Positions 48,208 to 49,042 of a DNA stretch of 64,000 bases are shown in pieces. The first letter of the stretch is position 1; the number at the start of each line of letters is the position of its first letter. The position numbers and the translations under genes were made by a program. The notes below the pieces were generated by a model. That model did no database searches. It was not told where the DNA came from and saw only the letters and a list, made by a program, of their open reading frames with translations. The DNA lies in contig JACPHY010000011.1 of assembly GCA_016188355.1 (NCBI GenBank), positions 23,219 to 87,218 on the forward strand, written 5' to 3'. This DNA is from Candidatus Uhrbacteria bacterium (GTDB lineage: Bacteria; Patescibacteriota; Patescibacteriia; JACPHY01).

Positions 48208-48431
48208 CCACGAAGGGCACGATTACCATCATCGCGATACCGAAGAGTGCGGAGGTGGAGGTGCATATCGATCTCCCCGAGGTTCCGGAGTGCACGCGCA
48301 TCGCAGCACGGATGCAGGCCGTCCTCGCGTGTCTCGGTGCGCCGCTCGAGGACATTCAGGATCTTCCGGCGCCGCGACAGCGACAGGGCGTTTCCCATGC
48401 GATGCGGAAGCGCGTGCGAGGGGGCACATGA
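48204..48431 (+). CDS. hypothetical small protein (75 aa)
   Basis: MTTKGTITIIAIPKSAEVEVHIDLPEVPECTRIAARMQ... Coupled by ATGA overlaps on both sides. Confidence 0.4.
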   Translation: MTTKGTITIIAIPKSAEVEVHIDLPEVPECTRIAARMQAVLACLGAPLEDIQDLPAPRQRQGVSHAMRKRVRGGT

Positions 48432-49042
48432 GCGCGATGGTGCAGGTGGGCGAATGCACTGCATCGACCGAGGCGATGGGTCCGGGTCGGCGCGCGTGCC
48501 TCTGGGTCCGCGGATGCTCGATCTGCTGTCCGGGGTGCGCGACGCCGGAGTTCATACCGTTGAGCACCACGCACGGCGTTTCGGTGGAGGAGATTGGTGC
48601 ATGGATCGCACGCGCTCGTACGGAGCAGCAGATCACGGGTGTGAGTTTTTCTGGCGGAGAGCCGTTCGAGCAGGCAGTCGCGCTCGCCGCGATCGCGCGG
48701 TACGCACGCACGATCGGCTGCTCCGTTCTGAGCTGGTCCGGGTACACCCGCGCACATCTCGAGGGATCGAGCGCGCCTCCCGGATCTGCGGAGCTCCTTG
48801 CCACGCTCGATGCGCTCATTGACGGTCCGTTCATTGCCGCACAGCAGGGCGGTGCTCCGCCACTACGAGGATCAACCAATCAGGTACTGCACCTCCTCAC
48901 CGATCGCCACCGTTCCGAGGATTTCTGTGTACGGACCGTCGAGATTCGTACCGATGCGCAGGATCACCCGATCGCCGTCGGCGTCGACCGCTACGCACGC
49001 CAACACGCGATTCTCCGGTTGCTTGGCCAATCGATTCGATAG
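48428..49042 (+). CDS. NrdG-like radical SAM activating enzyme (anaerobic RNR activase family), orphan
   Basis: LWVRGCSICCPGCATPEF (CxxxCxxC), GVSFSGGEPF, LSWSGYT and LIDGPF...LRGSTNQVLHLL are collinear with E. coli NrdG (LFVSGCVHECPGCYNKSTW, GISLSGGDPL, VWTGYKL, LVDGKFV...WRGSSNQVVHHL). Confidence 0.7.
   Translation: MSAMVQVGECTASTEAMGPGRRACLWVRGCSICCPGCATPEFIPLSTTHGVSVEEIGAWIARARTEQQITGVSFSGGEPFEQAVALAAIARYARTIGCSVLSWSGYTRAHLEGSSAPPGSAELLATLDALIDGPFIAAQQGGAPPLRGSTNQVLHLLTDRHRSEDFCVRTVEIRTDAQDHPIAVGVDRYARQHAILRLLGQSIR

Follow-up and report, generated by a model that had tools for sequence, protein, structure and literature searches.

A radical-SAM protein of the NrdG type in Candidatus Uhrbacteria that probably serves a conserved module around a classic-clade AAA+ ATPase rather than a class III ribonucleotide reductase

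To our knowledge, every known activase of glycyl-radical enzymes is the dedicated partner of a large enzyme of that class. A trio of a Ycf46-like AAA protein, DUF1257 (Ycf35) and DUF2997 occurs in cyanobacteria, plastids, plasmids of Firmicutes and phages. An NrdG-like radical S-adenosylmethionine (SAM) protein has one earlier mention, a computational one, in systems centred on nucleoside triphosphatases (NTPases): Kaur, Burroughs, Iyer and Aravind (2020, eLife; PMC7159879) described the FtsH ternary systems by computation, define them by a MoxR AAA+/vWA pair together with a two-domain FtsH-type AAA protein, and class the radical-SAM protein among the 'effectors'. Here we describe a 64,000-nucleotide stretch of a Candidatus Uhrbacteria bacterium (GenBank assembly GCA_016188355.1, contig JACPHY010000011.1, positions 23,219 to 87,218; hereafter the window), which encodes an NrdG-like radical-SAM protein of 204 residues (hereafter rSAM). 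We consider it moderately likely that rSAM belongs, as its radical-SAM subunit, to a conserved module built on a classic-clade AAA+ ATPase and does not activate a class III ribonucleotide reductase.

A public database entry identical to rSAM is titled 'radical SAM protein'. Pfam Fer4_12 (PF13353) matched rSAM at 93.4 bits (gathering threshold, 22), and the top NCBIfam model was that of NrdG, TIGR02491 (72.4 bits; equivalog cutoff, 126.1), with a collinear alignment that spans 140 residues from end to end. Further NrdG models also scored below their cutoffs (NF008335, 49.4 vs 199; NrdG2, 38.8 vs 131; nrdG3, 36.6 vs 151.7), as did the PFLA model (35.7 vs 231.75). Every one of the eleven NCBIfam matches is an activase of a glycyl-radical enzyme, the QueE and viperin families being absent among them. 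Across 27 aligned homologs, which come from several phyla, the cluster motif CX3CX2C (Cys30, Cys34, and Cys37), the GPGxR loop (Gly18-Pro19-Gly20-x-Arg22), the GGEPF motif (Gly76-Gly77-x-Pro79-Phe80), Gly105 of the SGY box, the DG motif, Asp128, Gly133, and Ser149, Asn151, and Gln152 of the RGSxNQ box are all unchanged. These family matches and the alignment bear out the first-pass annotation of this DNA, made from the sequence without database searches, which had recognized a 204-residue NrdG-like open reading frame (ORF) with the cluster, GGEP, SGY, and RGSxNQ boxes. A search of the Protein Data Bank (PDB) by sequence gave nothing informative. The best fold match of an AlphaFold2 (AF2) model of rSAM (input alignment of 34 sequences; predicted local distance difference test score, pLDDT, 85.7) was the pyruvate formate-lyase (PFL)-activating enzyme PflA (PDB entries 3C8F/3CB8; E=2.4e-7; TM-score, 0.52). 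The two share a partial TIM-barrel radical-SAM core over ~130 aligned residues at 22–24% identity, whereas PflA is longer (245 residues) and the window holds no PFL-type enzyme. The ~50 extra C-terminal residues of rSAM form a small beta/alpha subdomain in the model.

With NrdG (TIGR02491), rSAM has in common its small size class, a collinear sequence, and the CX3CX2C, GPGxR, GGEP, SGY, DGP, and RGSxNQ motifs; it differs in its sub-cutoff score, its ~50 extra C-terminal residues, its separate clade, and the neighbors of that clade, which are AAA+, Hsp70-like, or Clp-like ATPases or GTPases and not nrdD. This was seen by scanning genome, metagenome, and viral collections for homologs of rSAM and clustering the proteins of their neighboring genes, all counts being among the matches listed. 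At least 22 homologs have nrdD within 6 kb and a median length of 167.5 residues, and at least 70 adjoin AAA genes and have a median length of 203 residues; the NrdD-linked NrdGs are without the C-terminal extension seen in rSAM. In a neighbor-joining (NJ) tree of 225 non-identical sequences, 20 of them NrdD-adjacent, 18 of these 20 fell within one separate clade of 44 leaves. The clade of rSAM itself (179 of the 225 leaves) contains no NrdD-adjacent sequence and takes in all AAA-, Hsp70-, DUF2997-, fvmX6-, and GTPase-linked sequences and nearly all Clp-linked ones; none of the listed members of this clade adjoins nrdD. A tree of 81 taxa split cleanly into 20 NrdD-adjacent and 61 NTPase-linked sequences, and when this set was bootstrapped, rSAM stood outside the clade of bona fide, NrdD-linked NrdG throughout (it grouped with the NrdD-adjacent sequences in 0 of 100 replicates). 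Against a hidden Markov model of the NTPase-linked sequences, built without any sequence from the Candidate Phyla Radiation (CPR), rSAM scored 185.5 bits, and against that of the NrdD-adjacent sequences 103.8 bits, a preference of 82 bits. rSAM is a radical-SAM enzyme of the glycyl-radical-activase type, from a clade distinct from NrdD-linked NrdG. The first-pass suggestion that the activase had been recruited to a different substrate gains support from the NrdD-free clade, the profile preference, the sub-cutoff score, and the C-terminal extension.

In agreement with the first-pass annotation, neither a PFL-type nor any other glycyl-radical enzyme was detectable in the 64-kb window, and no cognate glycyl-radical domain was found nearby. 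A bona fide NrdD of locus L146, where it stands beside a short NrdG (L numbers denote the loci compared), gave no match when the window was searched with it by tblastn. Antisense artefacts aside, the ORFs of at least 500 residues encode SMC, VanW, a T2SSE ATPase, canonical FtsH, GyrA, RNase Y, IF-2, the AAA+ ATPase of the module, and a 789-residue product. Further ORFs of at least 250 residues were housekeeping genes or had no match, and the smaller ones scanned gave TsaD, GDH, a DHH phosphoesterase, alanine racemase, S1, or no match. The 789-residue ORF (window positions 11928-14297, + strand) has no Pfam match at E≤0.001 and no similarity to NrdD.

The genes and elements of the rSAM locus are the following.

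47659..48207, + strand: p182, 182 residues, first gene of the p182-p75-rSAM unit, in the position of DUF1257; no Pfam match.
48204..48431, + strand: p75, 75 residues, with a single conserved Cys; probably divergent DUF2997-like.
48428..49042, + strand: rSAM, NrdG-like radical-SAM protein, 204 residues; intact ORF with CX3CX2C at C30/C34/C37 and a C-terminal extension of ~50 residues.
49183..50295, + strand: beta-propeller paralog 1, 370 residues, ending VVLDFGAPHFDLAPRENWADASFG; weak Pfam propeller matches; gene call in agreement with locus L001.
50332..50421, + strand: intergenic repeat (repeat families D3 and D4), with copies at 53187-53276, 55375-55473, and 57687-57785.
50436..53174, + strand: long AAA+ ATPase, 912 residues, with an N-terminal domain, a coiled-coil-like middle, and a classic-clade AAA domain.
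53262..60003, + strand: six more beta-propeller paralogs with ends at 54329, 55398, 56546, 57710, 58818, and 60003 and approximate starts; WD40-type Pfam matches.

The stop codon of p182 and the start codon of p75, and likewise the stop of p75 and the start of rSAM, overlap by 4 nucleotides (ATGA), and a ribosome-binding site, GGAGGAGG, lies 5' of p182; p182, p75, and rSAM form one translationally coupled operon. The gene had been called an orphan. It is not: it is coupled to p75 and p182, and the module with the AAA+ ATPase recurs in Uhrbacteria and in other phyla and plasmids, while the neighbors are as they had been described (a protein with a weak pyruvate-kinase (PK) barrel match, two small proteins without a Pfam match, and seven tailed propellers). 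The AAA+ ATPase, which Pfam AAA (PF00004) matches at 68 bits, is over its full length 32% identical to two split genes that follow rSAM in another Uhrbacteria locus (L003), where the layout is a propeller, a 199-residue protein, a 71-residue protein, an rSAM 54% identical to that of the window, and the two AAA-part genes. In tblastn searches, its AAA domain was 27–32% identical to matches in L027, L039, L018, L023, L052, L042, and L009, the ATPases matched being of the ~550-residue plasmid and cyanobacterial type, also of the classic clade. Its N-terminal domain resembles the Ycf46-like N-domain marginally (P=5e-4), and that of the CPR ATPases showed no similarity to the N-domain of the fvm AAA proteins. 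At least about twelve further CPR loci (L086-L100) came from the metagenome scan, and the gene set of the module is repeated in most of the longer ones. In shuffled order, this set comprises a p182-like gene, a p75-like gene, rSAM, an AAA gene of 820-1066 residues, and between two and five paralogs with a common C-terminal tail, which belong either to the propellers or to a family of ~225 residues (loci L003/L004, L087, L089/L090, L092-L094, L097-L100, and L027). In Uhrbacteria, a functional link ties rSAM to a classic-clade AAA+ ATPase and to the arrayed paralogs that bear the tail. As we propose it, the Uhrbacteria module would consist of p182 (in the DUF1257 position), p75 (DUF2997-like), the NrdG-like rSAM, the long AAA+ ATPase, and the array of tail-sharing paralogs, here the seven beta-propellers. 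In two of the CPR loci, the propellers are replaced by four or five tandem ~225-residue paralogs (L087, 5508-10897; L089, 6266-9139), all paralogs of one genome having the same tail (PVSRFDEAFV for L087; YYNPFDHMASPFDD for L089).

Homologs of p182 stand directly upstream of a p75-like gene and rSAM in at least 13 CPR loci. A search for p182 homologs by sequence returned only p182 itself, and a profile search of a database of 5.8 billion proteins returned five members, all from Uhrbacteria or without a lineage name; the p182 family is very small, fast-evolving, and restricted to Uhrbacteria. In its AF2 model (pLDDT, 77), the N-terminal half is helical and the C-terminal half has the order beta-beta-beta-alpha-beta-beta. 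Comparisons by hhalign with the C5 family described below, fvmX5, and DUF1257 gave P=0.1-0.16, none of them significant; the alignment with DUF1257 is collinear though not significant, with FFWN of the p182 family paired with ADWW of DUF1257. The one real argument for likening p182 to DUF1257 is that the gene order DUF1257-DUF2997-rSAM on a plasmid of P. polymyxa mirrors p182-p75-rSAM. As for p75, the protein itself has no Pfam match, and its family aligned with DUF2997 at P=1.4e-5 (1.5e-4 with Uhrbacteria members only; controls, 0.62 and 0.018) over a beta-hairpin, the lone conserved Cys, and the helix after it. The protein in the p75 position in L027, a locus of Paceibacterota, matched Pfam DUF2997 just below the gathering threshold (E=4.8e-5; 23.6 bits vs 24.1). 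By these alignments, p75 is probably a divergent DUF2997. The end of p75, RVRGGT, was also considered as that of a ubiquitin-like or glycyl-radical (RVxG-like) tail protein, which was rejected since the family does not conserve the GG: GG(G/T) is found in three of seven members, and ARAKN, ARIKN, or KIETR in the others.

Elsewhere, homologs of rSAM (35–46% identity) are found in several gene contexts. In Clostridia, Paenibacillus, Actinobacteria, and one archaeon of Methanomethylophilaceae, rSAM accompanies a ~550-residue AAA protein, a DUF2997 protein, a 150-420-residue protein (C5) that resembles DUF1257 (hhalign P=9.5e-5), and a membrane helix-hairpin-helix (HHH) protein. The same gene set is carried by plasmids of B. 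cereus and Arthrobacter, and the P. polymyxa plasmid pPPM1a has the order AAA-DUF1257-DUF2997-rSAM followed by two tailed membrane proteins in place of the HHH protein. In Planctomycetes and Myxococcota, rSAM lies beside proteins with the Pfam 'FtsH ternary system domain' families fvmX6, fvmX5, and fvmX7 and an fvmX3 analog, together with a 700-residue AAA protein, the nearest fvmX6-linked member being 41% identical to rSAM and placed within the 179-leaf clade. The remaining contexts are an Hsp70-like protein with a 524-residue AAA protein, a ClpB-like ATPase, and a triad of consecutive P-loop GTPase-like genes (metagenome contigs L106, L107, L110, L113, and L118). Members of the rSAM clade recur as accessories to chaperone-like NTPase modules, many of which are carried by plasmids, and the clade extends over CPR bacteria, Actinobacteria, Firmicutes plasmids, cyanobacteria, and one archaeon. 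Since the activase core is kept and yet the clade (179 of the 225 sequences sampled) travels with AAA+, Hsp70-like, and Clp-like ATPases and with GTPases, it may act on an unrecognized class of substrate. In the ClpB subtype (L133, L135, L137, L142-L144, and L149, from marine metagenomes), rSAM is downstream of genes for a ~615-residue ClpB-like ATPase, a 309-residue coiled-coil protein with GGNTRTMGGGQG as its glycine-rich end, and a protein of ~1080 residues. In the GTPase subtype, the 350-400-residue protein directly upstream of rSAM always ends in RR.E.QGY-COOH, resembling the glycyl-radical motifs RVSGY and RxCGY.

GenBank, JGI, and UniRef name members of this clade 'anaerobic ribonucleoside-triphosphate reductase activating protein', even in AAA/DUF2997 modules of aerobes, which looks like a systematic misannotation that could mislead metabolic reconstruction of CPR and other genomes. 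On the Arthrobacter plasmid pZXY22 (L246, 8211-8633), a gene of the clade is labelled 'nrdG' within an AAA/DUF2997 module.

Set beside the FtsH ternary systems, rSAM resembles their radical-SAM 'effector' in that both lie next to a classic-clade AAA protein and small uncharacterized proteins and both have a predicted peptide or protein target. The only radical-SAM proteins that we saw beside fvmX genes belong to the clade of the window rSAM, and the radical-SAM protein of Kaur et al. may belong to it as well. The differences are that no protein of the window matches fvmX3, fvmX5, fvmX6, or fvmX7, that the window ORFs scanned gave no MoxR and the 354-residue neighbor has no vWA match while a classic AAA is present, and that the CPR module, which occurs in a lineage with reduced genomes that is not multicellular, comes with p182, p75, and propeller arrays. 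With the Ycf46/DUF1257/DUF2997 trio, the parallels are the order AAA-DUF1257-DUF2997-rSAM on pPPM1a, which is like p182-p75-rSAM near the AAA gene, the resemblance of the p75 family to DUF2997, and an identity of 27–31% between the AAA domains; on the other hand, the Uhrbacteria AAA is ~350 residues longer, p182 is not significantly like DUF1257, and the trio often comes without rSAM. The literature searched mentions neither the form found in CPR bacteria, in which p182, p75, and propeller arrays occur, nor the breadth of the link to Ycf46/DUF1257/DUF2997. Judged by its sequences, the Uhrbacteria module is a new CPR form of a computationally predicted kind of system, by which conflict-type systems proposed for multicellular bacteria would reach reduced-genome episymbionts. 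The link to rSAM also offers a way into the uncharacterized Ycf46/DUF1257/DUF2997 module, which is present in plastids and phages as well.

Within such a module, rSAM would most likely cleave SAM reductively, and the 5'-deoxyadenosyl radical would take a hydrogen from a protein or peptide partner encoded alongside it. We favor a partner of this kind because the whole activase core is kept: CX3CX2C, the SAM site GGEP, and the GPGxR loop, which in the PFL-activating enzyme reportedly touches the peptide substrate, a finding ascribed to Vey et al. in 2008. The AAA+ ATPase, with the DUF1257/DUF2997-like proteins as adaptors, would recognize tail-tagged proteins and may unfold, remodel, or present them. 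We infer the protein nature of the substrate, the candidate proteins, and the biological role alike. The module is probably a conflict- or defence-type or a stress-chaperone system, as is suggested by its carriage on plasmids, the diversifying paralog arrays, and the kinship with the systems of Kaur et al.

The tails of all seven propellers of the window follow the pattern [LF]DFGxP...HW[AS]DASFG, and the 28-mer that encodes them is present in seven copies (repeat family D1). The element that the window propellers share with five other Uhrbacteria modules is [ILV][LF]DFGxPN[FL]G, 12-15 residues before the C-terminus; the final residues vary by genome, HWADASFG and the terminal Gly being peculiar to the window genome. 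The terminal Gly was accordingly rejected as a conserved feature of propeller tails, the conserved one being ΦΦDFGxPN(F/L)G, where Φ is a hydrophobic residue. In modules of Firmicutes and Actinobacteria, the AAA protein ends in RGGR(T/Q/A/S)[VIL]D[FLV] and the HHH membrane protein in GR[RI][IVL]D[FILWY]. AAA modules without rSAM, on plasmids of Pseudanabaena and Geminocystis and in phage Corndog, also bear ΦΦD[FL]-like tails: the AAA proteins of cyanobacterial plasmids end in PLQLDIR(S/Q), and in the mycobacteriophage Corndog gp96 ends in KVRVLDL, with GRAIDF and YALDFEEVV inside gp95. Because such tails are found on the AAA proteins themselves and in rSAM-free modules and phages, they suggest a motif for docking to the AAA protein rather than a substrate of rSAM. 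The acidic-aromatic tail thus seems to serve the AAA system for docking or recognition, in principle as EEVD or HbYX tails do elsewhere. Ycf46-like AAA proteins without rSAM were observed in cluster-O mycobacteriophages (L244; Corndog gp93-gp97) and on cyanobacterial plasmids (L245 and L248), accompanied by DUF1257, DUF2997, and sometimes Hsp70/GrpE, and their hydrophobic-hydrophobic-Asp-Phe/Leu C-termini are as in the rSAM-linked modules.

More specifically, the clade might consist of new protein-radical activases that act not on barrel-type glycyl-radical enzymes but on the tail-tagged clients, or the adaptors, of chaperone NTPases such as Ycf46/FtsH-like AAA+ unfoldases, and in Uhrbacteria a Cα radical, or a modification or cleavage derived from it, might be placed on a conserved glycine of ΦΦDFGxPN(F/L)G or on p75 after presentation by the AAA+ ATPase. 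We regard this version as rather doubtful; if true, it would mean a radical-based switch in a widespread and mobile conflict or stress system.

Several points weigh against assigning rSAM to an AAA+-centred module with a protein target. No partner family is common to all subtypes, as the AAA, Hsp70 plus AAA, ClpB-like, and GTPase contexts differ, and at least about 100 members of the clade, mostly cyanobacterial, have no recognizable partner within 6 kb. The context labels refer to genes up to 6 kb away that were called by crude ORF finding, all trees are distance-based, and the search for glycyl-radical enzymes covers the 64-kb window out of the whole genome. The AF2 model of p182 has no significant fold match, its hhalign comparison with DUF1257 (P=0.11) is not significant, and the link between p75 and DUF2997 is moderate. 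AAA/DUF1257/DUF2997 modules occur without rSAM too, making rSAM an optional accessory. Finally, structures of QueE, a small-molecule enzyme, were the second-best fold matches of the rSAM model (E=8e-5 to 6e-4), followed lower down by viperins, which keeps a small-molecule substrate in consideration.

The last two points, together with the lack of a conserved protein substrate across the subtypes, favor a QueE- or viperin-like enzyme that makes or destroys a nucleotide or metabolite (a signal or toxin), or a SAM-depleting effector, under control of the AAA module. An optional add-on to AAA modules is what typical effector domains are, and 'effector' is the word that Kaur et al. use for the radical-SAM protein. 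We nevertheless think such an enzyme unlikely, given that all eleven NCBIfam matches are activases of glycyl-radical enzymes, that the best fold match is the PFL-activating enzyme, that the GPGxR loop is invariant, and that no partner gene of the FolE/QueC/QueD or nucleotide-kinase kind is conserved in the module.

It is likewise improbable that rSAM places a glycyl radical or another modification on the C-terminal Gly tails of the propellers or on the RVRGG tail of p75, the two candidate substrates guessed at in the first pass. Tail-bearing paralog arrays do accompany rSAM in Uhrbacteria, the tail core ΦΦDFGxPN(F/L)G is conserved and has two conserved glycines, p75 is coupled to rSAM, and the GTPase subtype has its RR.E.QGY end on the protein upstream of rSAM. 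Both guesses are nonetheless weakened, the one by the genome-specific HWADASFG with its terminal Gly and by the ΦΦD[FL] tails on AAA proteins and in rSAM-free modules and phages, the other by the GG end that only three of seven p75 family members have. In known enzymes, moreover, stable glycyl radicals are buried in a 10-stranded barrel and do not sit on flexible tails. Least of all do we believe in a genuine NrdG with its nrdD elsewhere in the Uhrbacteria genome and a coincidental neighborhood: TIGR02491 is the top model and collinear over 140 residues, all catalytic motifs of NrdG are present, several databases name the relatives accordingly, and the NrdD search was confined to the window, but 72.4 bits is far under the cutoff of 126.1, the protein has an extra C-terminal subdomain, its clade is without an NrdD-adjacent member (0 of 100 bootstrap replicates; 82 bits in favor of the NTPase-linked profile), its gene overlaps by 4 nucleotides with p75 in a chain that includes p182, and the gene set recurs in at least about ten other CPR contigs, with other forms on plasmids of aerobes (Arthrobacter and B. 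cereus).

Directly upstream of the module lie three further genes.

43936-47512: a Ser/Thr kinase with an N-terminal DnaJ domain, a 354-residue protein, and a 400-residue protein.

These genes were considered as members of the module and rejected, because none has a counterpart next to the module in any related locus. The kinase-DnaJ protein matched Pkinase (106 bits) and DnaJ (53 bits), weakly the 'ternary complex associated domain' TCAD9, and the PD-T4-6 models of PADLOC. The 354-residue protein has a DHTGS motif resembling a metal ion-dependent adhesion site (MIDAS), with no vWA match in Pfam, NCBIfam, or PDB, and the 400-residue PK-like protein matched the pyruvate-kinase barrel at 25.7 bits, below the gathering threshold. 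PADLOC models gave no match to rSAM, p75, p182, the PK-like protein, the vWA-like protein, or a propeller. Ophion, a radical-SAM defence system from the literature, is related to viperin and not to rSAM.

The intergenic repeat lies 3' of propeller stop codons and consists of a perfect hairpin, GTCCCATC-CCCG-GATGGGAC, followed by CTTCCCACGCCGCGATCTC...GGGAGGA immediately ahead of the next gene. Possibly the repeat is a terminator, an attenuator, a translation-initiation element, or an RNA element with a ribosome-binding site. Read as protein, it gives rise to a spurious 'CPIPGWDFPRRDL' peptide.

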